Source of the DNA: an uncultured Bacillales bacterium
Lineage (GTDB): Bacteria; Bacillota_I; Bacilli_A; RF39; UBA660
DNA: 60,645 nt
Direction: 5' to 3'
Assembly (NCBI GenBank): GCA_946614095.1
Contig: CAMOGG010000002.1
Coordinates: 1 to 60,645, forward strand
The notes below the pieces were generated by a model that saw only the letters and a program-made list of their open reading frames with translations, was not told where the DNA came from and did not search any database. The position numbers and the translations under genes are program-made. The stretch's first letter is position 1. Each line of letters opens with the position of its first letter. Shown piece by piece: positions 4,577-23,731 of this stretch.

Positions 4577-5014
4577 ATGAAAAAAGGGATTATTTTAATA
4601 ATATGTTGTGTTTTATTGACAGGGTGTGTACCAAAAACTAAGGCTCAATTTGATGATATTATAGAAGAGGCAGATCCTATTCGAAAGGAAGATAAAATTG
4701 TTGGAATGAATTATAAGATTACCATTCCTAAAAATTATTCTTTTTATCGAGTACTTTCTACTCATATTGTTGATTCTATTGCTCATTATAAAGATTTGAA
4801 TGATATTCAATCGTTTGTTGTATCGGTTACTTTGAAAAATGAAACAGAGAAAGATATTCGTTTAAAAGAAGTATTGGTTAAAAATGATGATATAGTGACG
4901 AATCGCTTTTCTAATGATATTATTTTTTATAAAGGTGGAGTTAATTCATTTTCTATTGTTATTGGTCAACCATTATCTTTTCAATCATTTATTGAATTTG
5001 TTTTTGATAAATGA
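4577..5014 (+). CDS. Lipoprotein, function unknown
   Basis: Signal peptide with lipobox: MKKGIILIICCVLLTG|C. GGAGG RBS precedes the start. Confidence 0.7.
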   Translation: MKKGIILIICCVLLTGCVPKTKAQFDDIIEEADPIRKEDKIVGMNYKITIPKNYSFYRVLSTHIVDSIAHYKDLNDIQSFVVSVTLKNETEKDIRLKEVLVKNDDIVTNRFSNDIIFYKGGVNSFSIVIGQPLSFQSFIEFVFDK

Positions 5015-5095: not shown

Positions 5096-6865
5096 ATGAA
5101 AAAGAGAATTAAAGTTATTTTGACTTTAGTGATTTTGGGTTGTATGGTTTGGTTTTTAATTGTTTCTCCATTGATACAGTTTCATCGTAATGAGAAGAGT
5201 GTTGAAAAAGCAGGGAAAAGATATTTTGACTTGAATCAAAATGAGCTTCCAACTGGAGAGAGGGTTAAAACGTTGAGTTTAAAAAAACTTTATTTTGAAA
5301 AACTTTTGGAAAATGATATTTTTGCTCCTTATACTCGAAAAACTTGTTCTTTAGAAAAAAGTTGGGTTAAAGTCAAAAGAGAAGAAAATGATTATCAATA
5401 TTATGTATATTTGGATTGTGGTATCTTAAAATCTTCTGTTGATGCGAAGGGACCTGTTATTCGGTTAAAAGGTAAGGAGAAAATAACTCTAGGGGTTGGT
5501 GATCAATATGAAGATCCTGGTATTTCTAGTGTGGTTGATGATGTGGATGGAAAACTAAATACTTCCGATGTAAATATTAAAGGAAAAGTAGATACATCAA
5601 AAGTTGGGGTTTATGAAATTACTTATTCTGCTTATGATAAACTTAGTAATGCTGGAGTAGCTACTCGTACTGTTTCTGTTGTTAAAAAGGCTTATAATAC
5701 TTTTAAAAAGGATTTAGGCAAAGAAACAAATTATAAAGGTATGCCTACGAATAATTATGTAAGACTTTCTAATATGGTTTTTGCGGTTTATGGTATTGAT
5801 GAAAACAAGAATATAGTTTTAGTGGCAGATAAAGATGTTGCGAATGTCAGCTATAATAAGATTAATGATTGGTTGAAATATTACTATCAGCATTTTACTA
5901 AGAAATCAAAATCTATGATTGTTCCAAGTAAGTATTGTAATATGAAAGTTGATGAGAGTAACCTTAATACAACAGAGTGTACTTCTTATACCAAAGAGAG
6001 AAATGTTTATATTCCTTCTATTGTTGAAGTAAATAAAGCAGCGGGTGATTATGATAGCTTCATGAAACCAGTTACTATGTCTTGGCTTTCTACGAGTCAA
6101 GATTCCAAAAAAGCATATTTAACCCGTAATGTTTTTTATGGAAGTGATTATGAAAAAAGTTTTGTGGCTTATGATATAACAGAAAACTATGGTGTTCGAC
6201 CAATGCTTACTATAAAAGGTAGTACTTTAATTACTGGTGGTGATGGTAGTTATGCAAATCCATATACTTTTGGAGATTCTGAGCCTGCTAAAGGATCATC
6301 CTTATTGAATACAAGAGATACAGGAGAATATATTTCAGATGGTTCTTTCTTATGGAGAATTGTTGATGTTATGAAAGATGGTACTACGAAAGCTATTAGT
6401 GAAGAAGTTATTACTCTTGCAGAGGCAAAACAAGATTCTCTTTCTGAAAGAATTACCTATAATCCAAAAGATAAGACTAGTGTTGGTTATTATATTAATA
6501 ATAAAGTTAGTGAGTTTGTTGATACTTCTAAACTTGTTAATCATCAAATAGAAGTTCCAATTTATCAAAATAAGATTATTTATGGTGAAGAGTCTACAAC
6601 AAAAAAATATAACGTTGTTTTGTCAGCACCAAATATGTTTGAAATGTTTAGCGCAGCACCTTCTTCTACAAGTAGTTCTTATTGGTTTTTAAATACTTCT
6701 TTAGAAAATGGAGTGGGGGCGGCTTTAACTGAAATAGGTGTTCCTTATAATGATAAGATAGGTCCTTATACTACTTTATCGGTGCGTGTTGTTGGGTATT
6801 TTAAAGATAGTACAATTATTAGTACTGGAAAAGGTACTGAGAATTCTCCTTATGTTGTTAAGTAG
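5096..6865 (+). CDS. Type-A surface protein 1: TM anchor, pilin-head-like domain, DUF5011-type Ig domain, two beta-rich LWRI/GVRP-type domains
   Basis: AGGAGG RBS at 5083-5088. N-terminal TM helix. Head segment ending YYVYLDCG. GPVIRLKG...YEDPG...GVYEITYSAYD matches the DUF5011 pattern. Domain ends are GGDGSYANPYTFG and GKGTENSPYVVK. Confidence 0.75.
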   Translation: MKKRIKVILTLVILGCMVWFLIVSPLIQFHRNEKSVEKAGKRYFDLNQNELPTGERVKTLSLKKLYFEKLLENDIFAPYTRKTCSLEKSWVKVKREENDYQYYVYLDCGILKSSVDAKGPVIRLKGKEKITLGVGDQYEDPGISSVVDDVDGKLNTSDVNIKGKVDTSKVGVYEITYSAYDKLSNAGVATRTVSVVKKAYNTFKKDLGKETNYKGMPTNNYVRLSNMVFAVYGIDENKNIVLVADKDVANVSYNKINDWLKYYYQHFTKKSKSMIVPSKYCNMKVDESNLNTTECTSYTKERNVYIPSIVEVNKAAGDYDSFMKPVTMSWLSTSQDSKKAYLTRNVFYGSDYEKSFVAYDITENYGVRPMLTIKGSTLITGGDGSYANPYTFGDSEPAKGSSLLNTRDTGEYISDGSFLWRIVDVMKDGTTKAISEEVITLAEAKQDSLSERITYNPKDKTSVGYYINNKVSEFVDTSKLVNHQIEVPIYQNKIIYGEESTTKKYNVVLSAPNMFEMFSAAPSSTSSSYWFLNTSLENGVGAALTEIGVPYNDKIGPYTTLSVRVVGYFKDSTIISTGKGTENSPYVVK

Positions 6866-6873
6866 GTGTTGGT

Positions 6874-7671
6874 ATGCTTGTGAATAAAAAACATAAAGAA
6901 TTATTCGGTATTATTCTACTTCTTTTTATTGCTATTATTGCTGTTCTTTATGAAATATGTCGTCCATATTATAATAGTGTTAATCGTGTTTCTAATATTT
7001 TAGAAGAAAAGAAAAAAGATACGAAAGATTATCATACGATTGGGTGGCTTAAAGTGCAGGGAACAACTTTAGATTTACCGATTTTGACTATTAATCATAA
7101 AGATCCGCCTGTTAATAGAGAACATTTTTCTTGGGTATTAAATGAAGATGATCAATATCATAATGTTATGAATATACTAGGTCATAATATATTTAATTTA
7201 TCATCTTCTCCTAAATTACATTTGGAGCATTATCAAAGATTTGAAGATTTGTTATCTTTTGTTTATTATGATTTTGCAAAGGAGAATAAATATATTCAAT
7301 TAACTATTGATAATAAAAATTATATTTATAAAATATTTTCTGTTGGTTTTATTCCATCTTATGAAGTATCTCTTTTTCCAACTGGCGAATATTCTAGGGA
7401 GCAATTATCTAAACAAATTTCATGGTTGAAGGATATTTCCGTTTATGACTATGATTTGGATGTTCAGAATGATGATCATATTATTTCACTGGTTACTTGT
7501 ACAAGGCTATTTGGTTATAATGATATGTCGAAAGACTTTATTGTTAGTGGTAGATTGGTTCATTCTGGTGAACTTATTTCAGATTATAAAGTTACTAAAA
7601 ATAATCAATATAAAGAAATAAATAAAATATTGAAAGGTGATGGTGAGAATGAAGATGCTTCTTCAACATAA
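6874..7671 (+). CDS. Class-B-sortase-like transpeptidase 1
   Basis: N-terminal TM helix. IGWLKVQGTTLDLPIL, ILGHN (His), ISLVTCT (Cys) and SGRLV (Arg) are collinear with the S. aureus SrtB motifs. Confidence 0.75.
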   Translation: MLVNKKHKELFGIILLLFIAIIAVLYEICRPYYNSVNRVSNILEEKKKDTKDYHTIGWLKVQGTTLDLPILTINHKDPPVNREHFSWVLNEDDQYHNVMNILGHNIFNLSSSPKLHLEHYQRFEDLLSFVYYDFAKENKYIQLTIDNKNYIYKIFSVGFIPSYEVSLFPTGEYSREQLSKQISWLKDISVYDYDLDVQNDDHIISLVTCTRLFGYNDMSKDFIVSGRLVHSGELISDYKVTKNNQYKEINKILKGDGENEDASST

Positions 7672-10600
7672 AATAAAGATTTTGTTGATTGTACTTTTTG
7701 TTTTTTCAGTTTTCTTTGTTGCATCTCTTTCTTTTGACGGTAATTCTATTACTAAGAAGAAGAGTGAAAAATTAGAAGGAGAAACTGTAACAACAAGTAA
7801 AAAGGTAAAATGTGAAAATTATACTGTTCAAGAAGCAGAAGATAAGAAGAAAAGTGGTTTTGATTTTTTTGGTCGTTATGGTACGGAAGGTGAATTTTCT
7901 AAAAATGGTGATTTTACCATTTCAATTTCCCCAAGTACTTCAAAATCAAACAATCCAGTTGGTTCTGATTTTGAATTGTATGTTGAAAAAATTTCCATTG
8001 TTAGTTTGTTAGAACAAAATGATGATTTAGTAGACTCAATGGAGAAGTATACTGTATATAATTCTAAAGATTATGGACCAGATGATTATCGATTGTCTAA
8101 AAAGAAAAGTATCACGATTAGTAGATCTGAAGTAGAATCACTTGCATCTTCAGTAACAAGTGCTGATGCTGATACTGTTTTAATTACTTTGAAAGCAGTT
8201 AAGGCTAATTCTGATCCAATGTGTGAAGGAACTGTTTTTTATAATGTAGAGGTTGGTCTTGATTCTTTTTCTAGTGCTGTTTCTGAACCGATTGAAGGGG
8301 TTGAAACAGTAGGAGATTATTATATTGCTCCTGTTTCTATTGATTGTAATAATCCGAAAGATGACTTTGAACAAAGTTATTGTGTAGGAGAGAAAGGTTA
8401 CTTTAATCCTGGAACAAAAAAAACTGTAACAGTTAAAGATAAGAGTAGCGATTTAAAAAGAAATGGTGGTACTTTTAAGAATATTCGTTATGCTTTAAAA
8501 TGTGATGCTCATTCGATTGTACCAAGTAATAGTTCTATTGCGAAAGATAGTGCTAGTGAAAGTAAATACTATGTTAATGATGAAATATTAAAGGCTTCTC
8601 ATACAACTAGTGAGTCTTTTGGTAACTATACGTATCATTATGCACCAGGTTTGCCTACAGAAACGGTTCCAATTAAGGTTGATACCACCTGTACTGAAAC
8701 ATTGCATGTTCAGTATGGACCACCTGTATCTGTAAAAGCTGGAATTTGTTTTGAATATAATGTTAAAGTTACTAGTACAGTAGTTTGTAAAGCTTCTAAG
8801 GTACCTGCACCTAAGGCTGCCACTTATTGTAATCCTATTCCAAAATGTTATCATAAAACCGGTAATTGGACAGGAGCCAATGCTGGACCTAATGATTCTT
8901 TTGATATGTGTATTCAGCAATGTGATGGTGGAAAGTATTCTGACTATTGTAGTCAAAAATGTTATAGTTCTATTTATACTGTTGGAGAAAAGAGAACTTC
9001 TAGTATTCTTGATGATTATAGTGTTCAACAGATAAAATCTTATCGTAAAGATAAAAATGGTCGTCAAAGAATTACTACTAGCTCTAATGTTGATAAAGCT
9101 AATGCTTTAATTGATAGTATTAATAAATGTTTATCGTTGGAAGAGAAAAGTACTTTAAAAAATTCACATTATACAATGACTAATTATCCGAATGTTGGAA
9201 CTTCTGGTGGAATAAATTTCTATGGATGTTATTATTGGGATGAGTCTGCTAAAGAAATTAAGTGGGCTTCTGGTATTGAAGGTAATATTTTAGAAAATTC
9301 TCATGGTAAAGTTGGTAATGCAAGATATGCTCCTGGAAGATGGTATGGTGTTCATCGTAAAACTTCTAATTACGCTGGATATTCTTCAAATGATGGTTTC
9401 ATGCGTAAAGCTTTTTCATCTGGTTTATGTACTGCTTCCTGTAGATGGGATGGATGTTCTCAGACAGAATATTGGAATCCTGCTCAGGCTAAAGCAGATT
9501 ATGATGAGAATATGAAAGTCTTTAATGATGCAAAAACAGCGGCTGAGAAGGCAAGCACTTGTTCAGAGAAAACAACAGAATTTACTATGAAAGTTACGGA
9601 GTATGGTACTTATATGAAATCTGCTGATACGTTAACCTCAAAGCCTTCTGGACAAAATATTGACGAAAAAGAAAAATTATTAGGGAAAAGATATGTTAGA
9701 GATTATTCTAAGTGTTATCAAACCTCTGATATTAATAAAAATGAGATGTATCAAACGGTTTGGGGATTCCCTGGTGTTTGGCAAGATGCAAAGAGTATGA
9801 AAATTTCATTTGTACAAGTTCCTGATTCTGTTTTCATTTCTAATAAATTTTGTCTTCCGTTAGATGCTAAAACAGTTAATGAGAAATGGTGGACTTATTA
9901 CTATACTGCTCAATATGAGCATAGTACAACGAGTTTAACGTCTCAAACTTATCAAGATAAATGTATGAAAACTACAACGTGTACTAATTGGGTACATGAA
10001 AATGATATCGATTGGGATAAAGATATTACATATAATATTACAGGTTCTACTGATAATTTTGGTCATTTTGGATGGAACTTGGATGTTAGTTGTTTCTATG
10101 CATATTCTACGAATCCAACAACCGGTAAGGACTGTAAACCTTCTATTGAGTGTGATTCTTCTAGTGGATATACAGTGCGAAGTGTTGATTTATCCGATAT
10201 GTTTCCTAGTCCAGATGGTGAAACTCATTCTGCTGATACAACCGGAAGGGATACTGGATTTAACTGGACAAAGTATGCAACAAATGTTAAAAAAGATCCT
10301 AATTATGTTAGTGATCCTATTGCCTATTTGAAAGAAACTCAAAAAAATGAAATTTTATTGCGTAAACGAGGAAAATCTACTTATACGAATGAAGCAGAAT
10401 TGGATTATCGTATTTATTTATCTCGTGAGGATTTACGTAATATTAAAAAATATGTTACTAGTGATTCATTCTCTTATACGGATTATGGCTCTCGTGGTAA
10501 ATTTATTCCAAATGGAAGCGTTTTAAGCTATCAAAGTAACGTATTACGTTCTACTACTTCGAATGGACTTTCAGTATTTAATTCTGATAATATATTAGTA

Positions 10601-10675
10601 GATGAAAGTCTGTTGAAATGTAATAATGTAGATAATGGTAAGTGTGCACAATTTGTTAGTGAGGTGAAAGAATAA
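7649..10675 (+). CDS. Giant cysteine-rich secreted protein C1 (unknown family)
   Basis: Signal/TM segment KILLIVLFVFSVFFVASLS. I count 29 Cys. Paralogous to 15524-18238. The start overlaps the end of the sortase gene; ATG 7649 was chosen after the AAAGG RBS. Confidence 0.8.
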   Translation: MKMLLQHKIKILLIVLFVFSVFFVASLSFDGNSITKKKSEKLEGETVTTSKKVKCENYTVQEAEDKKKSGFDFFGRYGTEGEFSKNGDFTISISPSTSKSNNPVGSDFELYVEKISIVSLLEQNDDLVDSMEKYTVYNSKDYGPDDYRLSKKKSITISRSEVESLASSVTSADADTVLITLKAVKANSDPMCEGTVFYNVEVGLDSFSSAVSEPIEGVETVGDYYIAPVSIDCNNPKDDFEQSYCVGEKGYFNPGTKKTVTVKDKSSDLKRNGGTFKNIRYALKCDAHSIVPSNSSIAKDSASESKYYVNDEILKASHTTSESFGNYTYHYAPGLPTETVPIKVDTTCTETLHVQYGPPVSVKAGICFEYNVKVTSTVVCKASKVPAPKAATYCNPIPKCYHKTGNWTGANAGPNDSFDMCIQQCDGGKYSDYCSQKCYSSIYTVGEKRTSSILDDYSVQQIKSYRKDKNGRQRITTSSNVDKANALIDSINKCLSLEEKSTLKNSHYTMTNYPNVGTSGGINFYGCYYWDESAKEIKWASGIEGNILENSHGKVGNARYAPGRWYGVHRKTSNYAGYSSNDGFMRKAFSSGLCTASCRWDGCSQTEYWNPAQAKADYDENMKVFNDAKTAAEKASTCSEKTTEFTMKVTEYGTYMKSADTLTSKPSGQNIDEKEKLLGKRYVRDYSKCYQTSDINKNEMYQTVWGFPGVWQDAKSMKISFVQVPDSVFISNKFCLPLDAKTVNEKWWTYYYTAQYEHSTTSLTSQTYQDKCMKTTTCTNWVHENDIDWDKDITYNITGSTDNFGHFGWNLDVSCFYAYSTNPTTGKDCKPSIECDSSSGYTVRSVDLSDMFPSPDGETHSADTTGRDTGFNWTKYATNVKKDPNYVSDPIAYLKETQKNEILLRKRGKSTYTNEAELDYRIYLSREDLRNIKKYVTSDSFSYTDYGSRGKFIPNGSVLSYQSNVLRSTTSNGLSVFNSDNILVDESLLKCNNVDNGKCAQFVSEVKE

Positions 10676-10678
10676 TCT

Positions 10679-11206
10679 ATGAATAAAGGTATGTTAACAA
10701 TTGGGATTATTTTACTTTCTATTATTTCTTTGCTATTACTTAATGTTTTAAATAACTATATGACTGGTGGAGAGTTAGATTATTATCTTGTCAAAGAAAC
10801 TGCTGATGCTGCTATGTTAGATGCAGTTGATAATACATATTCTGCTGTAACTTGTGGATTGCCTCGAATTGATAAAGAAAAATTTGTGGAAAGTTTCGTT
10901 TTACGTTTTGGTAGTAGTATTGATGGCAGTAGAGGTTATGAATTGAGCTTCTATGATATTAATGAAGTACCTCCTAAAGTAAGTGTTCGAGTAGATTCAT
11001 TGACTGTCTTGTCATTTAATGTAACCGGTGGAGAGGAAAAGGATACAAAACAAGCGGCTGATATCACAACAGAATATAGTGCTATTTTAGAGAGTAATTA
11101 TATTTCAGATATTACAGTAGAAGAAGGATTAAGAAGTTCAAATCCTACTGATAAATCTTATGATATGTGTCGTCCTCTTGATGAGATTTCAAAAGAAAGT
11201 AAGTGA
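10679..11206 (+). CDS. Small N-terminally anchored protein D1 (pseudopilin-like?)
   Basis: Starts MNKGMLTIGIILLSIISLLL, identical over 20 residues to D2. GAGGTGA RBS lies inside the end of C1. Two Cys. Confidence 0.75.
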   Translation: MNKGMLTIGIILLSIISLLLLNVLNNYMTGGELDYYLVKETADAAMLDAVDNTYSAVTCGLPRIDKEKFVESFVLRFGSSIDGSRGYELSFYDINEVPPKVSVRVDSLTVLSFNVTGGEEKDTKQAADITTEYSAILESNYISDITVEEGLRSSNPTDKSYDMCRPLDEISKESK

Positions 11207-11228: not shown

Positions 11229-11313
11229 TTTTAATTATTTTTTATTTTATCTTTTAAAAAAATTGAAATTGTTGTATACTTAATAATAGTAATAATAGGG
11301 GAGTGTGATTTAT

Positions 11314-12867
11314 ATGATTTTTCGTAAACCATATGCATTCTTAATTAAAAATTTTAGAAAAATACATATTGTTTTGTTATTAATTAGTTTATATTGTGCT
11401 TATCAATTATTTGATGTTAGTCGCTTTGTAAGTGATTTTATGCAATATGGTACTTATGATATTTTTCAAAATCCTATTAGTAAACATATTACTTGGTTAT
11501 TAAGACTTTCTACACTTTTGTTGGCTGCAGGTAGTGCTGCGTTATTAATTTTATTACGATATAAAAAGAAACCTTGGAAAGTATATCTCATTCCAATTAT
11601 TGAATATTTGGTTTTATTCTTTGTGTTGGGAATGGTTAGTAGTTTCTTTAATGCTTATTCTAATACGGTAGAGACAACAGATTTACGATTGTCTAGGGAT
11701 TTATTGATGATTTTCATTATTGCTCAATTGCCTGCTATTGGAATTTTCATCATGCGTATTCTAAATCTAGATATTAAAAAGTTTAATTTTAACTCTGATG
11801 AAGAATTTTTACAGTTATCAGAGCAAGACCGTGAAGAATTTGAAGTTAATTTTAATTTTGATATTAATTCGGTTAAACGATTTTCTAGACGTGCTTTTCG
11901 TAATATTCGCTATTTCTATATTGAGCATAAATTAATTTGTAATACTTTAGTAATACTTCTTGTCGTTTTTACTAGTTTCCAAATTTATCGCTCTATTTTT
12001 ATTACCCATAAGAGTTATTCTGAGGGTGATGATTATATGATTAATGGATATACCTTTCAAGTTCATAATAGCTACTATACTGATAAGGATTATAGTGGTA
12101 CTGTGATTTCTAAGAAAAGTAATTTTGTTGTTGTAGATTTGGATGTTGTTAATCATGCTGCACGAAGAAGTTTACGAATTGATAATTTCCATTTGAAAAA
12201 TGGAGTAGAGGATTATACCACTACTAGAAAAACTTATGCAACAGAGTTTCAAGATTTAGGAGAAACTTATGATAGTGTAAAAGAATTACAGCAAAATGAA
12301 AAATTTCATTTTATTATTGTTTTTAAAGTAGATAAAGATTTGAAATATAATCGGTTTCAATTATATTATCAAGAAAAAGATTATTTAAGAAAGATTAAGT
12401 TGAATGTAAAAGATGTTAGTGAGATTCAAGATGAAAAAGTGATAACGATAGGAGATAGTATGAATTTTTCTCTTCGAGGAAAGAAAGAATCTATTTCTAT
12501 TGATGATTATGAGTTTCTTGATTCTGTTGATTATTTAAGTCGTATTTGTGGAGTTGTTAATTGTTTTACGGAACCACAAGTGTTTACTGCCCCAAGTGAT
12601 CAAAAAGTCTTAAAAATTGAATTTTCTTCTATTCTTTTTGAGGGGAAAGACATGGTTGACTTTTCAAATGAATATGGTAAAATTATTTATATAGATAATA
12701 GTAATGAGGATAATGAAGAGGTTGAACTTAACTTTAAGTATCCATTTTCTAAAGTAGCTACTGGTAAATACCTTTATACTTTGGTTCCACGTGAACTAGA
12801 AGAGTCTTCTAGTTTGAAATTAGTGTATGTTGTGCGAAATAAAAAATATGTTTATCAGTTAGTATAG
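11314..12867 (+). CDS. Polytopic membrane protein with extracellular DUF4352-like beta domain
   Basis: About 4 N-terminal TM helices, a charged loop and a further TM helix. These are followed by NFVVVDLDVVNHAARR...FHLKNG...FHFIIVFKVDKD, a DUF4352-type pattern. AGGGGAG RBS, ATG at 11314. Confidence 0.6.
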   Translation: MIFRKPYAFLIKNFRKIHIVLLLISLYCAYQLFDVSRFVSDFMQYGTYDIFQNPISKHITWLLRLSTLLLAAGSAALLILLRYKKKPWKVYLIPIIEYLVLFFVLGMVSSFFNAYSNTVETTDLRLSRDLLMIFIIAQLPAIGIFIMRILNLDIKKFNFNSDEEFLQLSEQDREEFEVNFNFDINSVKRFSRRAFRNIRYFYIEHKLICNTLVILLVVFTSFQIYRSIFITHKSYSEGDDYMINGYTFQVHNSYYTDKDYSGTVISKKSNFVVVDLDVVNHAARRSLRIDNFHLKNGVEDYTTTRKTYATEFQDLGETYDSVKELQQNEKFHFIIVFKVDKDLKYNRFQLYYQEKDYLRKIKLNVKDVSEIQDEKVITIGDSMNFSLRGKKESISIDDYEFLDSVDYLSRICGVVNCFTEPQVFTAPSDQKVLKIEFSSILFEGKDMVDFSNEYGKIIYIDNSNEDNEEVELNFKYPFSKVATGKYLYTLVPRELEESSSLKLVYVVRNKKYVYQLV

Positions 12868-12877
12868 GGAGATTAAT

Positions 12878-14683
12878 ATGATGAAGAAAGATAATAAGTT
12901 GAAGTTTATTGTTACAGTTTTAATATGTTTTGCATTTGCATATTTTTTGATTATTTATCCAATTCAGGTTTTTCGTGGAAATGAGAATAAATTAAAGGAT
13001 GCTGCTGCTCGTTATTTTGAATTAAATCCAAGCCAGTTGCCTACTGGTGAGCGGATTAAAACTGTTGCTTTAAAAGAGCTTTATCATGAAAAGTTTTTAG
13101 AAACGGATATTTATGCTCCGTATAGTAAGAAGACATGTTCTGTCGAAAATAGTTGGGTAAAGGTTCGTAAAGAAAATGAAGCTTATCGTTATTATGTTTA
13201 CTTAGATTGTGGTGGTGCACTTCATTCTTTTGTGGATCATAAGGGACCAGAAATTACCTTGAATGGAAAAAAATATATTTCAATTGGTTTGGGAGAGGAT
13301 TTTACGGATCCTGGTGTTAATCGAGTAGTAGATGCAAAAGATGGAAAAATTGATTTATCAAATGTCATTGTTAAAGGAAAGGTTGATAATCAAAAAGTCG
13401 GTACTTATGAAATTACTTATACAGCTTTTGATCAATTGAGTAATAAAACAGTTGTGACAAGAAAGGTAGAAGTTGTTCAAAAATTATATGATACAATTGC
13501 TACTAAACTAAATGGTACCCGTAATTTTGTGGGAAATCCAGATAATCACTATGTTCAATTATCTAATATGTTATTTAGAGTATTTGGTGTTAATGAGGAT
13601 AATGATGTAATTCTTGTTGCAGATGAAGATGTTGCAAATGTTAATTATTCAAAATTAGATAAATGGTTAGATTATTATTATCAACATCTTAATTCCAATG
13701 CTCAAAAAATGATTGTGGACTCTCAATTTTGTAATGTAAGACTTTCTGAAAATAATTTAGATACTACTCAGTGCAATGCTTATACAAAGAAGAGAAAGAT
13801 TTATATTCCTTCTGTTGTTGAGGTTAATAAAGCAGCTGCAGGGGATGAGAATTTTATGAAGCCTGCTACAATGTCTTGGATTGCTAATTCTAAAACAGAT
13901 AATCAAGCTTATGTGACTCGTGATATTTTCTTTGATCAAGACTATGGAAAAAGTTTTCTACCATATAGTGTGTATGATAATTATGGGGTTCGTCCTATGT
14001 TAGTTATTAAAGGATCTTCCTTAATTACTGATGGTGATGGTACTCGTACAAATCCTTATCTTTTTGGAGATTCTAAGAAAGGGGCAAGTGGTTCATTATT
14101 AAGTAAGAGAAATACTGGTGAGTATGTTACTTCTGGAGGTATGTTATGGAGAATTATTGATACCTTTGAAGATGGAACTGTAAAAGTTGTAAGTGTTTCA
14201 ACTTTATCTAGCCCAAGTTCTGTAGCTAGTTGCTATCCTGATCCTGATAATTCAAAAATTCTTTATAATCCAGAAGATAAAATGAGTATTGGTTATTATA
14301 TTAATAACAAAAGTTCTGATTATATTGATTCTAAGGATTTTGTTAACCATGTTATTGAAGTTCCTATTTATAAGAATAAAATAATATTTGGAGAAGAGGT
14401 CAAAACAGTTAAATATAATGTGATGTTTTCGGCTCCTAATATGTATGAGATGTTTAGTGCCCAGGTTCGTAACCTAGTGGGATATTACCCTCATTCTTAT
14501 TGGCTAGTAAATAGTTCTAATGGAAATCGAATTGCTGGAGCTATTACAGATATTGGGGTTCCAATTAATGAGAAAATTGAAGAATACTATGCTTCTAATG
14601 TTAGAGTGGTTGGTTTTATGAAAAAAGGTCTTACAATCAGTAGTGGAGATGGTACTGAGATTCTGCCTTATAAGGTAAAGTAG
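12878..14683 (+). CDS. Type-A surface protein 2 (paralog of 5096-6865)
   Basis: Collinear with A1 throughout: LPTGERIKT, YYVYLDCG, a DUF5011-type segment (GTYEITYTAFD), DGDGTRTNPYLFG and the end GDGTEILPYKVK. Confidence 0.75.
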   Translation: MMKKDNKLKFIVTVLICFAFAYFLIIYPIQVFRGNENKLKDAAARYFELNPSQLPTGERIKTVALKELYHEKFLETDIYAPYSKKTCSVENSWVKVRKENEAYRYYVYLDCGGALHSFVDHKGPEITLNGKKYISIGLGEDFTDPGVNRVVDAKDGKIDLSNVIVKGKVDNQKVGTYEITYTAFDQLSNKTVVTRKVEVVQKLYDTIATKLNGTRNFVGNPDNHYVQLSNMLFRVFGVNEDNDVILVADEDVANVNYSKLDKWLDYYYQHLNSNAQKMIVDSQFCNVRLSENNLDTTQCNAYTKKRKIYIPSVVEVNKAAAGDENFMKPATMSWIANSKTDNQAYVTRDIFFDQDYGKSFLPYSVYDNYGVRPMLVIKGSSLITDGDGTRTNPYLFGDSKKGASGSLLSKRNTGEYVTSGGMLWRIIDTFEDGTVKVVSVSTLSSPSSVASCYPDPDNSKILYNPEDKMSIGYYINNKSSDYIDSKDFVNHVIEVPIYKNKIIFGEEVKTVKYNVMFSAPNMYEMFSAQVRNLVGYYPHSYWLVNSSNGNRIAGAITDIGVPINEKIEEYYASNVRVVGFMKKGLTISSGDGTEILPYKVK

Positions 14684-14700: not shown

Positions 14701-15546
14701 GTGAATGTTAAGGAAAAAAAGAAATCAATGAAAAGGCAAAGAAAACGGGATAGGACTGTTCTGTTATTAACTATTTCTATATTATGTATTGTTTTTTTAG
14801 GATTAGCATTGTGTAGGAGTCTCATTGCTCCTAAAGAGTATTATCAACTAGAGTCTAGAGTTTCTAATGTTGCTCTTTCTCAAGATAGTAATACTTCTGA
14901 TTACCAAACTGTAGGTTGGTTGAAGGTACAGGGTACTAATCTTGATTTGCCAATTTTAGCTGGAATTAGTGATGATATTAATTTTCCTGTAAAGAAGGAA
15001 AAATATGTTTGGACAGTAAGTAATGATGATAAATTTCATAATAAGATGAATATTATGGGACATAACATTTATAACTTATCTTCTAGTCCAAAAATAGAAT
15101 CTGAAGATTTTCATCGTTTTGAGGAATTGATGTCTTTCGTCTATTATGATTTTGCGAAAGAGAATAAATATATTCAATTGACAATTGATGGAAAAGATTA
15201 TCTTTATAAAATATTCTCTGTAGACTTTATTAATGCAGTTGATATTGATATGATTACAGGAGATGATAGCCTTAATGAAGATATTGGTTATCAAATTGAT
15301 TTATTTAAAGATAATACATTGTATGATTATGATGTAGATGTTAATGAAAATGATAAAATAATATCTTTGATTACTTGTACTAGGTTTTTTGGTACTGATA
15401 AATTTGTTGATTTTTTAGTAAATGGACGTTTGGTTCGTGAAGGAGAAAAGATTGATGATTATTCAGTGAAGAAAAATGATAATTATACAAAAGTTGAAAA
15501 TGTTATAAAAGGAGATGATAGCAATGAATCAAATAGTTCGATGTAG
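14701..15546 (+). CDS. Class-B-sortase-like transpeptidase 2
   Basis: VGWLKVQGTNLDLPIL, IMGHN, ISLITCT and NGRLV. GTG start 8 nt after the AAAGGAG RBS. Confidence 0.75.
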   Translation: MNVKEKKKSMKRQRKRDRTVLLLTISILCIVFLGLALCRSLIAPKEYYQLESRVSNVALSQDSNTSDYQTVGWLKVQGTNLDLPILAGISDDINFPVKKEKYVWTVSNDDKFHNKMNIMGHNIYNLSSSPKIESEDFHRFEELMSFVYYDFAKENKYIQLTIDGKDYLYKIFSVDFINAVDIDMITGDDSLNEDIGYQIDLFKDNTLYDYDVDVNENDKIISLITCTRFFGTDKFVDFLVNGRLVREGEKIDDYSVKKNDNYTKVENVIKGDDSNESNSSM

Positions 15547-18238
15547 AAGAATAATTGGGGTTTTTATTCTAATATTTGCTGTTTCTATCTTTGTTTTCTT
15601 ACCTAGTGAAGTATTTGCAGCTACGAAGAAAGAATGTAAGAATTATCTGACAAATACAAAGTTTATTTCTAGATATAATGCTAATATTACTACCACTGGT
15701 TCAAAAAATAAATATAAGATTTCTATTGAGCCTACTTCTTCTGATAAAAAGTTAGAAAAAGCTCTTAGAAAAGTTATTTTTAAAGTAATTAAAATTAATG
15801 ATAAAAATCAAGATGGAAGTAAAACTGTTTCTTATGGTAAACCTCTAACAATCAATGGTCAATATTTTACCAATGATCTTGGTGAAAAAGAGATGAGTAT
15901 TGTTTTAGAGTCTACTGAAAAAAGTGTCGATCCTAAATGTACTGGTACTGTAACATTTACTCTTGGAGTTACCACAGGTGGAGATGAGATTGTTTTAGAA
16001 GAGGATATTCCTACTATTGAAGATCAGTTTGGTGATGTTCAAGGAAAATTAATTGATTGTACAAAAACTCAGACTGAGGCTTTTGAAAAAGCTTTTTGTG
16101 AAACTAAAAATGCTGCTTTGAAAGCTGATCCTGATGGTACAAAAGGTTTGAATTATTCTGGAAAGTTTAATGGTCATAAGAATTTTAAAGATGTAGTTAA
16201 GGGAGAGAATGGAGAACTTGGTTATAAAAAGCTACAATGTAGTGCAACTAAGTTTGAAATTACTAATGATTATTATGTAAATAAGACACATCTTTATGGT
16301 TATGGTGAATATACTGAAAATTTTGGTAATTATACATATCATTATTCTCCAGGAGTTGTAACACAAGGTGAAAATATTAACTGTAAGGTTAGATGTGAGG
16401 AAGCTGTTGTTGTGGAATATGGTCCTCCGGTTGCTTCTAAAGCTGGTTTGTGTTTTGAATATAAAGTTAAAGTTACAAGTAGAGTTAGTTGTAATATGAT
16501 TGAAAAACCAAAAACTCCTAAAACAACGAAGCATTATTGTACTCCAACGCCTATTTGTTTAACTAGTGCGGGTACTTATACCAATCAAGGTGGTCCTAGT
16601 GAAGAGTTTGATTCTTGCGTTAAAACATGTGATGGTGGTAAATATACTGATAAATGTACGAAGAAATGTTATCAAAAAGTTTATGGTGATTCTGCTACAA
16701 AAACAACTACACGTGGAAAAGAATACTTAACAGAACAAATTAAGTATGGAGCAGATGCTTTTAGCCTTCAAGCGTGTAAAAATGAGAGTGGATTCCATGG
16801 ATGTTATTATCGTGCGGGTAATTCTATTCTTTGGGAAGGTGTTTCAAGTTCAACTCCTGGTAGATGGTACTTAGTTTCTCCTCATAAAGATTTATCAGCT
16901 TATGGAGTATTTGGTAATGGTATTTATCGTCATATTTATGGTGAAGGTAACTATTGTCATGATAATTGTTGGTGGTCTGGATGTTCTGATTCAAATGTTT
17001 ATTTAAATCCTGGTATATCAAAAAAAGATTATGAGAATAATAAGGAATTGTATGACACTGCTGTTGCACAATGTAAAGTTGAAGCATCTTGTACAACAAC
17101 TACAGCTGATTTTACAATTTCAGTAAACTATAAAAATGGTAAAAATGAAGTTAAGACTTTAGACTTCCCTTATACAACTAAGAAAGATAAAATGACATCT
17201 AAAGGATCTGATGAGAAAATAGAAGATACTAACAAAAATAATGATACAACCATCCTATGTGCAGATAGAGATCCTTTAACTGGTAAATGTAATGATGATA
17301 AAGGAAGAGGATGTTACTCTACAAAAGATGCTAAGAGAATTTATATGACAGAGTGGAGCTTCCCAGGTTCTTGGATTAATAATAAATCTGGAGAAATATC
17401 TTATGTTCCTAAAGATGATAAGAGTTGGCAAACTATGAAAAATAAATTCTGTATTCCATTAGATGCACAAGATGTTAATGTTAAATGGTGGAATTATCGT
17501 CAATTAAAAAATCCAAATTATAGTCAATCCTCAGCTTCATCAAGTGCTTATGTTGAAAAATGTGTACAGAATGGCTATGGTATTCAGAATATTAGTACAT
17601 TTAGTAATAGTGATGTAGAGGATTGGAATATTAATGCGAAAACTTCGAATTTTGGTTATTTCGGATGGAATATTCATGTATCATGTTTCTATGCATTAAA
17701 TACAGGAAAACGTACAACTACATCTACTAATACGAATTCTTCTGTTCCTAAAGAATGTTTATCTGATGCTTCTTATCGAATTCGTTCTGTAGATTTAGCT
17801 AATTTATTCCCAGCTACTGATGGATCTGTATCTGAATCAAGAGCTCCTGGATTTAACTGGAGTGAATATGCAACTAAGACAAAAGCTAATAAAGATCCGG
17901 CTAATGATTATTACGAAATTAATCCTGCTAAGTATGCTACATTTGTTGCTTCAAAAGCACAAGCAATTTATTCTGATGAGTACTTAGATTATTCAATTGA
18001 TTTAACTCGTGATATGATTGCTAAATTAAGAAAAGATAGTAAATCTAATAATTACTCTACGTATGCTAATGATGATGAGTATTTTACAAAAAATTATGTT
18101 ATTAATTATCGTAGTCCATTATTTAAAAATGGTGGAGCACTAAGTAGTAGTTCTAAGTATCCTACACTTGAGTCATTGAAATGTAATAATATGAAAAATT
18201 ATAATAGTGGTTGTGAAGAATTTGGAGGTAATGATTAA
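15524..18238 (+). CDS. Giant cysteine-rich secreted protein C2 (paralog of C1)
   Basis: Signal peptide ending SEVFA|ATKK. I count 32 Cys. Blocks shared with C1 include GNYTYHY, YGPPV..KAG.CFEY.VKVTS, CDGGKY, PGRWY, KFC.PLDA, NFG.FGWN..VSCFYA, RSVDL, GFNW and LKCNN. Confidence 0.8.
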   Translation: MNQIVRCRRIIGVFILIFAVSIFVFLPSEVFAATKKECKNYLTNTKFISRYNANITTTGSKNKYKISIEPTSSDKKLEKALRKVIFKVIKINDKNQDGSKTVSYGKPLTINGQYFTNDLGEKEMSIVLESTEKSVDPKCTGTVTFTLGVTTGGDEIVLEEDIPTIEDQFGDVQGKLIDCTKTQTEAFEKAFCETKNAALKADPDGTKGLNYSGKFNGHKNFKDVVKGENGELGYKKLQCSATKFEITNDYYVNKTHLYGYGEYTENFGNYTYHYSPGVVTQGENINCKVRCEEAVVVEYGPPVASKAGLCFEYKVKVTSRVSCNMIEKPKTPKTTKHYCTPTPICLTSAGTYTNQGGPSEEFDSCVKTCDGGKYTDKCTKKCYQKVYGDSATKTTTRGKEYLTEQIKYGADAFSLQACKNESGFHGCYYRAGNSILWEGVSSSTPGRWYLVSPHKDLSAYGVFGNGIYRHIYGEGNYCHDNCWWSGCSDSNVYLNPGISKKDYENNKELYDTAVAQCKVEASCTTTTADFTISVNYKNGKNEVKTLDFPYTTKKDKMTSKGSDEKIEDTNKNNDTTILCADRDPLTGKCNDDKGRGCYSTKDAKRIYMTEWSFPGSWINNKSGEISYVPKDDKSWQTMKNKFCIPLDAQDVNVKWWNYRQLKNPNYSQSSASSSAYVEKCVQNGYGIQNISTFSNSDVEDWNINAKTSNFGYFGWNIHVSCFYALNTGKRTTTSTNTNSSVPKECLSDASYRIRSVDLANLFPATDGSVSESRAPGFNWSEYATKTKANKDPANDYYEINPAKYATFVASKAQAIYSDEYLDYSIDLTRDMIAKLRKDSKSNNYSTYANDDEYFTKNYVINYRSPLFKNGGALSSSSKYPTLESLKCNNMKNYNSGCEEFGGND

Positions 18239-18762
18239 TGAATAAAGGTATGTTAACAATTGGAATTATTTTACTTAGTATCATTTCTTTGTTACTAATC
18301 AATGTATTAACAAATTATTCTACAGGAAGTGAGTTAGATTATTATCTTGTAAAAGAAACTACTGACGCTGCTATGGAAGACTCTATTGATAAAGTTTTCT
18401 TAAGAGAATGTGGATTACATAGAATTGATAAAGAAAGATTCGTTGAGAACTTTCTTTATCGGTTCGCTAATAGTGTGGATTCTACTCGTGATTATCATAT
18501 TAAATTTTATGATATTAATGAAGTTCCACCTAAAGTTAGTGTTAAAATTGATTCTTTGACTGTTTTATCTTTTAATGTAACAGGTGGAGATGAAAAAAAT
18601 ACTAAACAAGCTGCTGATATTACGACAAGTTATGATGCTATATTGGAAACAAATTCTTTGTCTGATTTATCAGTAGAGGAAGGACTTAAAGAGTCAAGTA
18701 AAAATTCAGTAACTTATGATCAATGTCGATCATTATTAGAATTAAAAGGGAAAGGAGAATAA
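18238..18762 (+). CDS. Small N-terminally anchored protein D2
   Basis: The ATG overlaps the C2 stop (TAATG). Roughly two-thirds identical to D1 by eye. Confidence 0.75.
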   Translation: MNKGMLTIGIILLSIISLLLINVLTNYSTGSELDYYLVKETTDAAMEDSIDKVFLRECGLHRIDKERFVENFLYRFANSVDSTRDYHIKFYDINEVPPKVSVKIDSLTVLSFNVTGGDEKNTKQAADITTSYDAILETNSLSDLSVEEGLKESSKNSVTYDQCRSLLELKGKGE

Positions 18763-18764
18763 AA

Positions 18765-19574
18765 ATGGGAAATTTGACGACTGGTCTTAAGAAGTTTATG
18801 CAAAATAAAAATACAGTAACAGTAGTTGGTGTTATTGCTGCTATTATTGTTTTATATTTTGCTTATACTATGCGTATTAGTTCAGCTATTAGTCCTGTAG
18901 TTGTTCCTTATGCTAAAGAACAAATTCCTGCTGGAACATTAATTTCTGAAGCAATGATAGGTACAATGGAAGTTCCCCCTTCTATGTTAGAGGGAGATGT
19001 TATTCGTAATACAGGTGAAATTATTGATAAATATTCTTCTGCTGATACAGTTATTCCTCAAGGAAGTTTGTTTTATAAACGTTCTGTAGTTGAAAAAGAA
19101 CAGTTACCTGCTAATATTATTTTAGATTATCCAAAAGGATATGTTTTATATAATTTATCAGTTTCTACGAATACTACTTATGGTAATTCTGTTTATCCTG
19201 GAAACTATATTGATATTTGGCTTAAAGCTGTCAATAAACTTACAGATGAACAAGTTCAAGCTGGAGCAAGCGGAGCTAATCAGATTATGTATAGTAAATT
19301 AATTTCTAATGTCAAAGTTTTGGCTGTTAAGGATGCTAATGGTCAACCTGTATTCCAGAATTTGGATGAGAATAGAGTTCCTGCAATGATAGTATTTGCT
19401 TTACCTGAAGAATATTACACTTTATTACGTAAAGCAAGTTATATGAGAACTTATGATACTACTATTGAATTGGTTCCTACTAATGAAAGTCTAAAAGATG
19501 AACCTGGAAATCTTGAGATTTCTAGTGAAGACCTAAAAGAGTGGATCAATCAAAATACTTATTGGACAAATTAA
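18765..19574 (+). CDS. cpaB: CpaB/RcpC-like pilus assembly protein (TM + SAF domain)
   Basis: AAAGGAG RBS at 18751-18757. TM helix VTVVGVIAAIIVLYFAY, then the SAF-like segment VVVPYAKEQIPAGTLISEAMIG...IPQGSLFYKRSV. Confidence 0.65.
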   Translation: MGNLTTGLKKFMQNKNTVTVVGVIAAIIVLYFAYTMRISSAISPVVVPYAKEQIPAGTLISEAMIGTMEVPPSMLEGDVIRNTGEIIDKYSSADTVIPQGSLFYKRSVVEKEQLPANIILDYPKGYVLYNLSVSTNTTYGNSVYPGNYIDIWLKAVNKLTDEQVQAGASGANQIMYSKLISNVKVLAVKDANGQPVFQNLDENRVPAMIVFALPEEYYTLLRKASYMRTYDTTIELVPTNESLKDEPGNLEISSEDLKEWINQNTYWTN

Positions 19575-19592
19575 TAAAAGGATGTGAGTTGA

Positions 19593-21263
19593 ATGAATGA
19601 AAATATTTTTGATAAGTTGGATTTTGGACCTTTTCGTTCGTTACTAGATAATGATGATATAACAGATATTTCTTATGATAATAACGGTCAAATTTGGATT
19701 CGTTCTTTGACTCAAGGTTCTTTAAGGGTTGAAGTTGAAGGAGCAACTCCTGAATTTGTTGAAAAATTAGCTTTCCAATGTTCTAATGTTATGGGAACTA
19801 CGTTTAATAATGCAAAGCCTTTCTTGGATGCAGAGTCAGCAGAGCTTCGTATGAACTTTGTTCATCAAAGTATTGCTACAAATGGAATTGCTTTAGTTAT
19901 TCGTAAAACTCCTGCTAAGATTCGTTTGGAGAAAGAAAAGCTAATACAAGAAGATTATTTTACTCCGGCTATTCATGATTTTTTAATTAAATGTGTTGAA
20001 GGGCACTGTAATATTATGGTTGCTGGAGAGACTGGTTCTGGTAAAACAGAGTTTGTTAAATACTTGGCTAGTCACACAAAAACGAATGAAAAAATTATTA
20101 CGATTGAGGATACTTTGGAGTTACACTTAGATAAGATTTTCCCTCAACGTGATATTGTTGCTATGAAGACGAATAATGTAGCTAGTTATTCTGATGTTTT
20201 AGTTACATGTATGCGTCAGAATCCAAAATGGATTTTGCTTTCAGAGGTTCGTTCAGCAGAAGCTGTTTCTGCTGTTCGTAACTCTATTTCATCAGGACAT
20301 AATATTTTATCTACTATCCATGCTGATAAAGCTTCTGCTATTCCTTATCGTTTGTATTCCTTGATGGAGACTGATTTGGATGTTCGTCAATTCCTAACAA
20401 CGATTTATCGTTATATTCAATTAGGTGTTCATATTAAAGCATTTTATAGTAAAGAATATGGAAAATTCCATCGTGAATTAGATGAAGTTGCAGAGTTTTA
20501 TGTTGATGATGAAAATGTTCCTCGTTCTAGAATTATTTATCAAAAGATCTTTGGTAAGCCGATGATGTGTAAACCTAGTGCGCATTTGATTGAGTATTTG
20601 GAAAATCAAAATATTGAGGTTCAAGATATTATACGTGACTTACCTGATAATCTTCCTATTCATGAATTTCAAGAAGAATCAAAAAATAATGAAAATGATG
20701 ATTCTGTTAAAGCAGAAGAAACTGCTACTAATCCAGTTTCAGATGAAAAACAACCTTCAGCAGTGGTTACTACTCCTGAAGTTGATAATTCCTCATCTGA
20801 AGTTGTACCTTCAAATGTAGAGACTGCGGTAGTTTCAGAAAATCAGGATGTTACTAAAGAAGTTTCAAATGAGAATGTAGGTAGTGTTTCATCTACTGTT
20901 CCTGTAATTGAGACTCCTACGTTACCTGTAATAGATGCGGTTACTAATGCTGTACCTTCGATCCAAGAAAGTGTACCGGTAACTACTGCTACAGAAGATT
21001 CTATTTCTTCTAAGATTCAAACAGCTCCAGAGGTAGTTGCTCCTCCGCCAGTAGAGGGTATACCTGATGTTGGTGCTGTTGCAAATGTTGAAAATGTACA
21101 GGCTGTTGAGAGTACTCCAGTACCTACTGTTGCTGGAATTGCACCTGTTGTAAGTCCTGTTGCTACGCAACAACAAGTTGTTATTCAAGCTAATGTTCCG
21201 CCTGTTGTTCCTCCTGTTCCTGGAGTGGCACCAGTTACGGCAGTTGCTAAGCTTGGTGAATAA
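19593..21263 (+). CDS. tadA: TadA/CpaF-family secretion ATPase with long Pro/Val-rich C-terminal tail
   Basis: Walker A is AGETGSGKT, Asp box ITIEDTLEL, Walker B ILLSEVRSAEA and His box LSTIHA. The last roughly 200 aa are low-complexity P/V/A/T/E. Confidence 0.85.
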   Translation: MNENIFDKLDFGPFRSLLDNDDITDISYDNNGQIWIRSLTQGSLRVEVEGATPEFVEKLAFQCSNVMGTTFNNAKPFLDAESAELRMNFVHQSIATNGIALVIRKTPAKIRLEKEKLIQEDYFTPAIHDFLIKCVEGHCNIMVAGETGSGKTEFVKYLASHTKTNEKIITIEDTLELHLDKIFPQRDIVAMKTNNVASYSDVLVTCMRQNPKWILLSEVRSAEAVSAVRNSISSGHNILSTIHADKASAIPYRLYSLMETDLDVRQFLTTIYRYIQLGVHIKAFYSKEYGKFHRELDEVAEFYVDDENVPRSRIIYQKIFGKPMMCKPSAHLIEYLENQNIEVQDIIRDLPDNLPIHEFQEESKNNENDDSVKAEETATNPVSDEKQPSAVVTTPEVDNSSSEVVPSNVETAVVSENQDVTKEVSNENVGSVSSTVPVIETPTLPVIDAVTNAVPSIQESVPVTTATEDSISSKIQTAPEVVAPPPVEGIPDVGAVANVENVQAVESTPVPTVAGIAPVVSPVATQQQVVIQANVPPVVPPVPGVAPVTAVAKLGE

Positions 21264-21278
21264 AAAAGGGGTGATGTT

Positions 21279-23055: not shown

Positions 23056-23217
23056 ATGAAAGCTGCTACAGGTGAATTAAACTTAACTGTTATTACTTTA
23101 ATTGCTATTGCTGCAGTTGTTGGTTTCTTTTTGTCAGTTATGTGGCCAAAGATTCAAGAAAGTATCAATACTCAATGGGATGATATTTCAACTCAAGATG
23201 GAAGACCTGGAAATTAA
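23056..23217 (+). CDS. 53-aa Flp/Tad-type major pilin candidate (absent from the ORF track, <60 aa)
   Basis: My translation is MKAATGELNLTVITLIAIAAVVGFFLSVMWPKIQESINTQWDDISTQDGRPGN. It has a short polar leader ending in Gly, a 22-aa hydrophobic helix and a short tail. GAAAGGATGGG RBS and its own strong promoter. Confidence 0.7.
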   Translation: MKAATGELNLTVITLIAIAAVVGFFLSVMWPKIQESINTQWDDISTQDGRPGN

Positions 23218-23268
23218 TAATTTTATTTTGAATTAAAAATTATTTTATAAAAGGTGGGAGGATTTGCT

Positions 23269-23721: not shown

Positions 23722-23731
23722 GGTGATTTAG

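Follow-up and report, generated by a model that had tools for sequence, protein, structure and literature searches.

Sortases are defined by the C-terminal sorting signals of their substrates. Class B enzymes such as SrtB of Staphylococcus aureus, which acts on the NPQTN signal of IsdC, and the SrtB enzymes of Clostridioides difficile and Clostridium perfringens anchor proteins to the cell wall, while the class B enzymes Spy0129/SrtC2 of Streptococcus pyogenes and SrtG1 of Streptococcus pneumoniae PI-2 polymerise pilins that carry EVPTG, QVPTG or VTPTG signals together with a membrane helix. Here we describe two divergent sortases, S1 and S2 (together S), from an uncultured Bacillales bacterium of the RF39 lineage. 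They are encoded in a stretch of 60,645 nucleotides (assembly GCA_946614095.1, contig CAMOGG010000002.1, positions 1 to 60,645), which we call the window. Each is followed by an overlapping gene for a giant cysteine-rich protein (C1 and C2, together C) that lacks a normal sortase signal. Judged from the comparative evidence, the probability is about one half that S is a dedicated, active sortase which processes or attaches C through a non-canonical signal.

An association of a sortase with a Gram-positive type IV secretion system (T4SS) and large surface proteins is known from pCF10 (PrgA/B/C with SrtA) and pCW3 (SrtD with an adhesin), and it recurs in the S locus. Unlike these plasmid systems, the S locus encodes adhesin-like proteins without LPXTG, occupies a fixed chromosomal site after greA and contains a Tad-like pilus module. 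PilY1/PilC with PilVWX, together with the modular pilins of Gram-positive bacteria, offers another likeness, because there too a non-pilin of ~1000 amino acids is encoded beside small pilin-like proteins, 5' of the type IV filament motor. In those systems the adhesin is attached non-covalently and no sortase is encoded; we found no sequence similarity between C and PilY1. Gram-positive T4SSs have been described as pilus-less and reliant on LPxTG adhesins (PMC12857230), and SrtD is cited as needed for efficient pCW3 transfer (PMC8225981). A CpaF/PilC/DUF5411 operon was predicted computationally in Clostridia, with no mention of a sortase (PMC9523054). Our literature search found nothing on the sortase subfamily described here.

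Results and Discussion

The sortases lie in two cassettes, each with a C gene and a gene for a small pilin-like protein (D1 and D2, together D):

6874-7671, + strand: S1, divergent class-B-fold sortase of cassette 1, 265 amino acids; N-terminal transmembrane helix at residues 10-28; GHN, TCT and GRLV motifs
7637-10675, + strand: C1, giant (~1008-1012 amino acids) secreted Cys-rich protein; N-terminal signal peptide or anchor, no C-terminal anchor
10679-11206, + strand: D1, DUF5411 protein with a pilin-like N-terminal hydrophobic segment (MNKGMLTIGIILL...)
14701-15546, + strand: S2, divergent class-B-fold sortase of cassette 2, 281 amino acids; transmembrane helix at residues 20-38; catalytic candidates H121, C226 and R243
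15515-18238, + strand: C2, giant secreted Cys-rich paralogue of C1, 32 Cys
18238-18762, + strand: D2, DUF5411 paralogue of D1; always the gene after C

A preliminary description of the window had recognised S1 and S2 as sortase-B-like open reading frames by their landmarks, TIGWLKVQGTTLDLPIL, GHN, VTCT and GRLV in S1 and TVGWLKVQGTNLDLPIL, GHN, ITCT and GRLV in S2; both frames and all of these landmarks were recovered as quoted. The two proteins are 50% identical. Against the Pfam Sortase family (PF04203, MEROPS C60) S1 scores 25.3 bits and S2 30.6 bits, at a gathering threshold of 26.6, and against the SrtB model TIGR03064 they reach 41.5 and 49.2 bits (E 9e-11 and 4e-13), below the NCBIfam equivalog cut-off of 153.75 bits. 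The top matches in the PDB found by phmmer are the SrtB enzymes of C. perfringens and C. difficile (E ~1e-10). At the level of sequence, S1 and S2 are thus homologous to sortases well beyond chance, though weakly.

Structure prediction gave a consistent picture. An AlphaFold2 model of S2 built with 20 homologues (predicted local distance difference test, pLDDT, 83.8; predicted template modelling score 0.79) returned 122 PDB matches at E<=1e-3 with Foldseek. The best 19 are class B sortases, and among the matches listed 50 of 50 are sortases. Among them are Spy0129, which is associated with pili, and the PI-2 enzyme of S. pneumoniae (3psq/4y4q), with template modelling scores to the target of 0.69-0.75. 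The wall-anchoring class B enzymes, which are the best matches in both sequence and fold, resemble S in being anchored to the membrane at the N-terminus and in having His, Cys and Arg in the same order along the chain.

These three residues are strictly kept in the family. Across 85 homologues, whose members are only ~45-50% identical to one another, His121 and Cys226 are each found in 85/85, and position 243 is Arg in 80 and Lys in 5. Arg243 sits in a strand of the type G/A-R-hydrophobic that matches GRKVVHAKL of the canonical SrtB enzymes encoded in the same genome. Because the catalytic residues are so strictly conserved, S is very probably an active enzyme. It differs from the wall-anchoring enzymes, besides its score, in a longer loop between Cys and Arg (16-17 residues, compared with 7 in both canonical SrtB enzymes of the genome and 8 in C. 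difficile SrtB) and in a conserved C-terminal extension; identity to the genome's own canonical enzymes is 22-30%. A K/R-rich N-terminal segment precedes the single transmembrane helix, so that the positive-inside rule predicts a catalytic domain outside the cell. We also considered S as a substitute for the prepilin peptidase, an aspartic protease of family A24 with a cytoplasmic active site, and rejected this idea given the predicted extracellular domain and a true A24 peptidase encoded on contig C38.

We then compared relatives. With the sortase profile we retrieved 79 loci, all in genomes that represent species of uncultured Bacilli; these carry the labels Erysipelotrichaceae, Tenericutes, 'Mycoplasma sp. 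CAG:877' or Candidatus Faecimonas. The S open frames have 255-286 amino acids, and none of them is a fused sortase (79 loci; 30 S-positive genomes); the loci share the gene order poly-A-S-C-D-CpaB-CpaF-TadB-TadC-pilins-TadZ, in which poly and A are the membrane proteins discussed below. Where the flanks were read (L007-L089), the block lies 3' of greA at a fixed chromosomal site. A C gene comes after each S, and this pair is the invariant core of the arrangement. Two loci (L047, L067) read greA-S-C-D-CpaB without A or poly, the first cassette of L087 is S-C-D, again without both, and satellite cassettes away from the Tad genes consist of A-S-C and poly-A-S-C-D (L037, L060). Duplicated cassettes each retain their own S.

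In an even, order-wide sample of 151 genomes from 86 genera, D is present in 122, S in 30 (13 genera) and C in 27. All but one of the C-positive genomes (26/27) are also S-positive, and in the exception the C gene is cut by a contig end. The S-C pair thereby occurs in ~20% of the genomes of the order, compared with ~80% for the DUF5411/Tad genes, and D is found without S in ~92 genomes. Since S and C are inherited together in few genomes while D is widespread, the pair is an accessory to the D/Tad backbone, and the genetic partner of S is C. No homologue of S or C was found on 72,556 plasmids, pLS20-type plasmids included.

The pair is also joined at its gene junction, where two sequence elements matter:

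15508-15514, + strand: Shine-Dalgarno sequence of C2, AAAGGAG, within the K-G-D codons of the conserved S2 tail
7633-7647: cassette 1 equivalent of the C2 Shine-Dalgarno sequence, AAAGGTGATGGTGAG

The overlap of the sortase gene with its C gene, noticed in the preliminary description, proved general: the C frame opens 5' of the S stop in 89/90 junctions. Of 85 distinct junctions, 84 show an in-frame start of C behind a Shine-Dalgarno-like motif, and 83 of the 84 place this start 4-38 nucleotides 5' of the S stop. In cassette 2 the likely start of C2 is ATG 15524, 9 nucleotides past AAAGGAG, which overlaps the last 23 nucleotides of S2; C1 probably starts at ATG 7649 or 7655, within the 3' end of S1. 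The string AAAGGWGAT thus provides both the codons for a conserved K-G-D near the sortase end and the Shine-Dalgarno sequence of the overlapping C gene. The conserved tail of S is therefore probably in part an RNA signal for the translation of C, and the conservation of K-G-D may act at the RNA as well as at the protein level. With overlapping genes and a ribosome-binding site of C inside S codons, S and C should be produced jointly and appear at one and the same site on the membrane. The coupled expression that had been suggested from the two cassettes is in this way favoured by the comparative data, namely the overlap, the Shine-Dalgarno sequence inside S and the co-inheritance.

S also evolves fast, like the surface proteins of the locus and unlike its motor: mean distances are 1.38 for C, 1.04 for S, 0.91 for poly and 0.82 for A, compared with 0.25-0.30 for the motor proteins. 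Together with the data above, this makes S1 and S2 members of a distinct, fast-evolving subfamily of class-B-fold sortases.

Such enzymes could in principle serve ordinary substrates encoded elsewhere, with their position in the cassettes reflecting nothing but co-regulation. The genome-wide scan for sorting signals that had been proposed earlier did reveal ordinary substrates on contigs C41, C12 and C5 of the assembly (1.38 Mb, 76% complete), although the sorting-signal model TIGR03063, run in six frames, was too insensitive for the purpose. A textbook substrate with NPKTG, a helix and RKKRVS is encoded at C41:4534-5970, one with NPKTS at C12:15088-16029, and proteins with VPDTA and TPETG directly adjoin their own sortases (C12, C5). 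As a side observation, C12:23561-25769 and C5:21665-23510 are ordinary adhesin-plus-sortase pairs. Both adhesins terminate in VPDTA or TPETG plus a helix and a basic tail, and their TQTA(V/I)W-type motifs look, on inspection by eye, typical of thioester domains.

Canonical SrtB-type substrates thus exist outside the window, and S is nearest to class B sortases; its clients could, for example, be the NPKTG protein on C41 or the NPKTS protein on C12. However, the same genome encodes two SrtB enzymes above the TIGR03064 cut-off (contigs C10 and C22, 180 and 156 bits) and five further sortase-like genes, of which two are SrtB-like (C64, C21) and three are other sortases (C12, C5, C13). Canonical SrtB enzymes accompany the S type in 22 of 24 genomes of the same genus, the two exceptions being 69% complete. 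Because the canonical enzymes co-occur with S, the canonical substrates can be explained without S. Additionally, S is strictly co-inherited with C and missing from ~80% of the genomes of the order, its Cys-Arg spacing sets it apart from the canonical enzymes, and each duplicated or satellite cassette keeps its own diverged S, for which generic sorting has no need. We therefore regard ordinary sorting elsewhere as a quite improbable role for S1 and S2. The earlier suggestion of substrates encoded elsewhere holds in that such substrates exist, but the ordinary sortases present can serve them.

A client inside the cassettes other than C has to be weighed as well. The proteins in question are:

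5096-6865, + strand: A1, bitopic protein with a long N-terminal helix and small sheet (pilin-like), an immunoglobulin-like (Ig-like) domain and two DUF6273-like domains
12878-14683, + strand: A2, paralogue of A1
11305-12867, + strand: poly, polytopic membrane protein with 5-6 transmembrane helices and an extracellular DUF4352-like domain
18723-22984, + strand: Tad-like core of CpaB, CpaF, TadB and TadC, directly downstream of the cassettes
23056-24217, + strand: 53-amino-acid Flp-like mini-pilin and two pseudopilin-like proteins, without a sorting motif

S resembles the pilus-assembly class B sortases in being encoded within a surface-fibre operon beside its presumed clients. Unlike theirs, the fibre machinery here is Tad/type IV-like with a 53-amino-acid Flp-like pilin, and no client carries a signal: the adjacent pilin genes with sorting signals that are the hallmark of pilus-polymerising class C and class B enzymes have no counterpart, since we found no sorting signal in A, C, D, the mini-pilin or the pseudopilins. 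The ends of the A, C and D proteins are as first described, G.GT...PY..K in A, soluble Cys-containing tails in C and charged ends in D.

LPTGxR is nearly invariant in A, as LPTGER in A2, and the end G.GT...PY.(I/V)K is present in 80/80 orthologues. In the AlphaFold2 model of A2 (pLDDT 88.6), LPTGER lies in a confidently modelled loop that follows an N-terminal helix of 47 residues in a pilin-like head, and the last residues (PYKVK) form a beta strand at pLDDT ~90. A third, shorter A-like protein of 408 amino acids (36772-37998) closes the T4SS block of the window. It has an acidic cytoplasmic N-terminus, a transmembrane helix, a head that resembles the pilin-like head of A in sequence and a DUF6273-like domain; it reads LPVN where A has LPTG and ends G.GT...PY.LK. 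We rejected the LPTG of A as an EVPTG-like signal given its place in a confident loop past the helix, the LPVN of this paralogue and the loci that keep S without A. The G.GT...PY.VK end was rejected as well, being a strand whose motif also closes an internal DUF6273-like domain and the A-like protein. VPTNES of CpaB was discarded because CpaB is present in S-less genomes, and the mini-pilin and pseudopilins because their tails are variable and carry no motif. PDB profile searches with A, C and D matched the Ig-like domain of A only.

That S acts on A, D or poly rather than on C appears to us very unlikely. The nearly invariant LPTGxR of A speaks for it, as does the invariant VPPK segment of D, an otherwise variable-tailed protein, whose lysine might be an acceptor. 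The distances of S, controlled for the motor proteins, correlate slightly better with poly (partial r 0.56) and A (0.51) than with C (0.49), CpaB and D following at 0.28 and 0.25; poly, A and C are so similar here that we abandoned this mirror-tree comparison as a means of picking the partner. Against such a client, there are loci which keep S-C-D without A and poly, and D occurs in the ~92 genomes without S. In A, moreover, cleavage at LPTG, ~25 residues past the N-terminal anchor, would leave only a stub on the enzyme, the A-like paralogue has LPVN at this position, and the terminus is a well-modelled strand of a motif that closes an internal domain too. A disulfide between C and D, suggested by co-varying tail cysteines, was also rejected: D has 0 or 2 Cys, which suggests an intramolecular bond, and the pattern follows clades.

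Relatives without S show what else can stand in the place of the pair. Eight S-less loci were read. In 4/8 the slot upstream of D is occupied by two genes, X and Y, the X genes being:

L101:13503-14264: X gene, giant Y gene downstream
L102:13592-14356: X gene, giant Y gene downstream
L103:12138-12860: X gene, giant Y gene downstream
L105:13861-14631: X gene, giant Y gene downstream

X has 240-256 amino acids, a signal peptide, a Cys-containing ectodomain and a C-terminal transmembrane helix with a KRKR-type basic tail; it shows no similarity to sortases (hhalign probability 0.3%). The X gene overlaps the gene for Y. This protein, a Cys-rich giant of 689-1160 amino acids distinct from C, has only a C-terminal module of ~100 amino acids in common with C, and this weakly (hhalign probability 45%). 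Y ends IGGP(S/A)(Y/W)K in 3/4 loci, and neither X nor Y has a match in Pfam. Since the unrelated X also overlaps a different giant, the slot appears to hold a membrane-bound handler specific to the giant protein, and the ~250-amino-acid membrane protein encoded before each giant would be the handler of that giant.

In 5/8 of the S-less loci D is fused to large C-terminal extensions:

L101:8548-10275, - strand (relative G154): D fusion
L098:8309-11401: D fusion
L099:4295-7816: D fusion
L100:7639-9990: D fusion
L104:9934-11667: D fusion

The fusion in L101, a locus which also has X-Y, carries fn3 and a peptidase M15/VanY (D-Ala-D-Ala carboxypeptidase) domain and would amount to a pilin-like carrier equipped with a wall-active enzyme. 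In these relatives D is a modular fusion with Ig, fn3 and peptidase M15 modules, like the modular type IV pilins of Gram-positive bacteria, and the fusions point to D as a carrier of large modules.

X leads to a further explanation of S: an active enzyme that serves as a maturation or release protease, or else a membrane tether or chaperone, covalent or not, for its giant, rather than a transpeptidase that joins it to the wall or a pilin. X, a plain type I membrane protein without sortase similarity, stands in the same slot with the same overlap; C has no sorting signal, and sortases hydrolyse their substrates when a nucleophile is absent. We hold this role to be doubtful, though a real possibility. 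The conservation of His and Cys in 85/85 and of Arg or Lys at position 243 in 85/85, in a family whose members share ~45-50% identity, argues that the chemistry has been retained, which makes a purely inert tether unlikely; conservation of these residues does not address hydrolysis versus transfer.

We return to the dedicated sortase of C that acts through a non-canonical signal. C has no relative in Pfam or NCBIfam, and none in the PDB when searched with a profile built on C2 and its orthologues. A C-family profile search over 1.84 billion representatives yielded 713 relatives, of which we surveyed the tails of the best 150, all full length and pairwise <=50% identical. As partner C comes without a normal sortase signal, S probably uses a recognition signal of a kind not yet described; either this signal departs from the canonical type, or the enzyme has a task other than classical sorting. 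The last conserved feature of C is l-g-[C/V]-N-N, 1-30 residues before the end and followed by a tail rich in G, E, S and N. Its shape, x-[P/L/I]-x-[C/V]-N, loosely recalls the N-P-x-T-N of SrtB, Val and Cys being near Thr in size, and may serve as a lead.

Several observations weigh against this assignment. Strict and loose scans of the window agree with the preliminary description that no locus protein combines a sorting motif with a hydrophobic helix and a basic tail: nothing credible was found among the open reading frames, the sole matches of the loose scan being short antisense frames. NPTTG in C1 lies exactly at nucleotides 10112-10126, as had been noted, but is internal and not found in C2. 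Among the best 150 members of the C family, not one has a sorting-signal-like tail, and none has a hydrophobic 15-mer within its last 40 residues. A client of the NP(Q/K)(T/S)(N/G/S) type near S is likewise missing, both in the window and among these 150. This distinguishes the locus from class B systems, with their NPxT[NG] substrates ending in helix and basic tail. The candidate motif [L/P]-x-[C/V]-N-N has no counterpart in ~15% of members, and the [C/V]NN element could be a merely structural disulfide loop. The mirror-tree correlations do not single out C. Residue 242 of S (G/A), which adjoins the active site, co-varies with the type of C motif at a raw odds ratio of ~8.6, and phylogenetically independent pairs gave no support, so we dropped this link. 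Finally, X, which takes the equivalent place in S-less cassettes, is not an enzyme, and the slot may therefore serve for tethering or chaperoning instead of catalysis. The analogy to pCF10, with LPXTG adhesins and a housekeeping sortase, which had been offered for this locus, does not fit these data: there are 0 signals in the cassette proteins and 0 among the best 150 C members. Of the two branches left by the preliminary description, the non-canonical signal is favoured by the comparative evidence on S and C, but neither a motif nor a cleavage site nor an acceptor was found for it.

How a dedicated sortase for C might work can nevertheless be sketched. The S-C pair, usually with A and poly, forms an accessory 'head' module on the pilin-like D, the Tad-like motor and the Gram-positive T4SS, a far more widespread backbone that is chromosomal in uncultured RF39-like gut Bacilli. 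S would capture C during secretion, cleave it near its C-terminus at a non-LPXTG signal, for which [L/P]-x-[C/V]-N-N is the sole nameable candidate, and transfer it to an acceptor amine, on a lysine of the pilin-like D or in a wall peptide. The anchorless, adhesin-like C would thereby be retained on the apparatus. That C is the substrate, where it is cleaved, what accepts it and that transpeptidation prevails over hydrolysis are points that we infer. The most specific version, in which S recognises a signal without an LPXTG-type motif or membrane helix and couples C covalently to D, we put forward tentatively and consider unlikely. If true, sortase chemistry would load an adhesin onto the type IV (Tad-like) filament of a Gram-positive T4SS. 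To our knowledge, a non-LPXTG signal without a helix is known for no sortase and a sortase-loaded adhesin for no type IV filament.

The remaining genes of the window complete the picture of the locus. Its GC content is ~29-30%, and nearly all coding sequence is on the + strand. Housekeeping genes (U32 peptidases, an HD-domain protein, greA) lie upstream of cassette 1, followed by a long operon-like block. The whole Tad-plus-T4SS block lies within window positions 3296-38337, with rmuC and rpoD beyond its end, and runs from cassette 1 (A1-S1-C1-D1) through poly and cassette 2 (A2-S2-C2-D2) to the Tad-like module and the T4SS genes. The single poly gene is typical, as there is one copy per locus, confined to loci of the S-C type. 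The Tad-like module also holds a TadZ-like protein, and its ATPase is CpaF-type. The T4SS genes encode a TrbL/VirB6-like protein, a split VirB4, a SpoIID-domain protein, which is probably a wall hydrolase, and a VirD4 coupling protein; the window proteins that were scanned include none with a relaxase or integrase domain.

Three further genes deserve mention. A predicted lipoprotein of 145 amino acids (MKKGIILIICCVLLTGC...) is encoded at 4577-5014, between greA and cassette 1; a similar gene stands in the equivalent position in L026 (200-637), and the lipoprotein may be part of the locus. The CpaF-type ATPase (19593-21263) has a C-terminal tail of ~200 amino acids rich in Pro, Val, Ala and Thr; CpaF measures 418-598 amino acids among relatives and 363-375 amino acids in S-less relatives. 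At 41010-43670 lies a sigma-70 family protein of 886 amino acids, whose regions 2-4 start only at ~residue 514, after a very long N-terminal extension.

Conclusion

In summary, we have described a conserved and evidently active sortase subfamily whose sole consistent partner is a giant protein without a sorting signal, and such a pair would widen the range of recognition known for sortases. It may offer a new ligation specificity, possibly useful as a tool. Cassettes of the sortase type (S-C-D), cassettes of the anchor type (X-Y-D) and D fusions, all on one backbone, provide a natural comparison. The finding bears on how uncultured gut Bacilli with small genomes, such as those of the RF39 type, hold very large, fast-evolving surface proteins on a Tad-like/T4SS apparatus.

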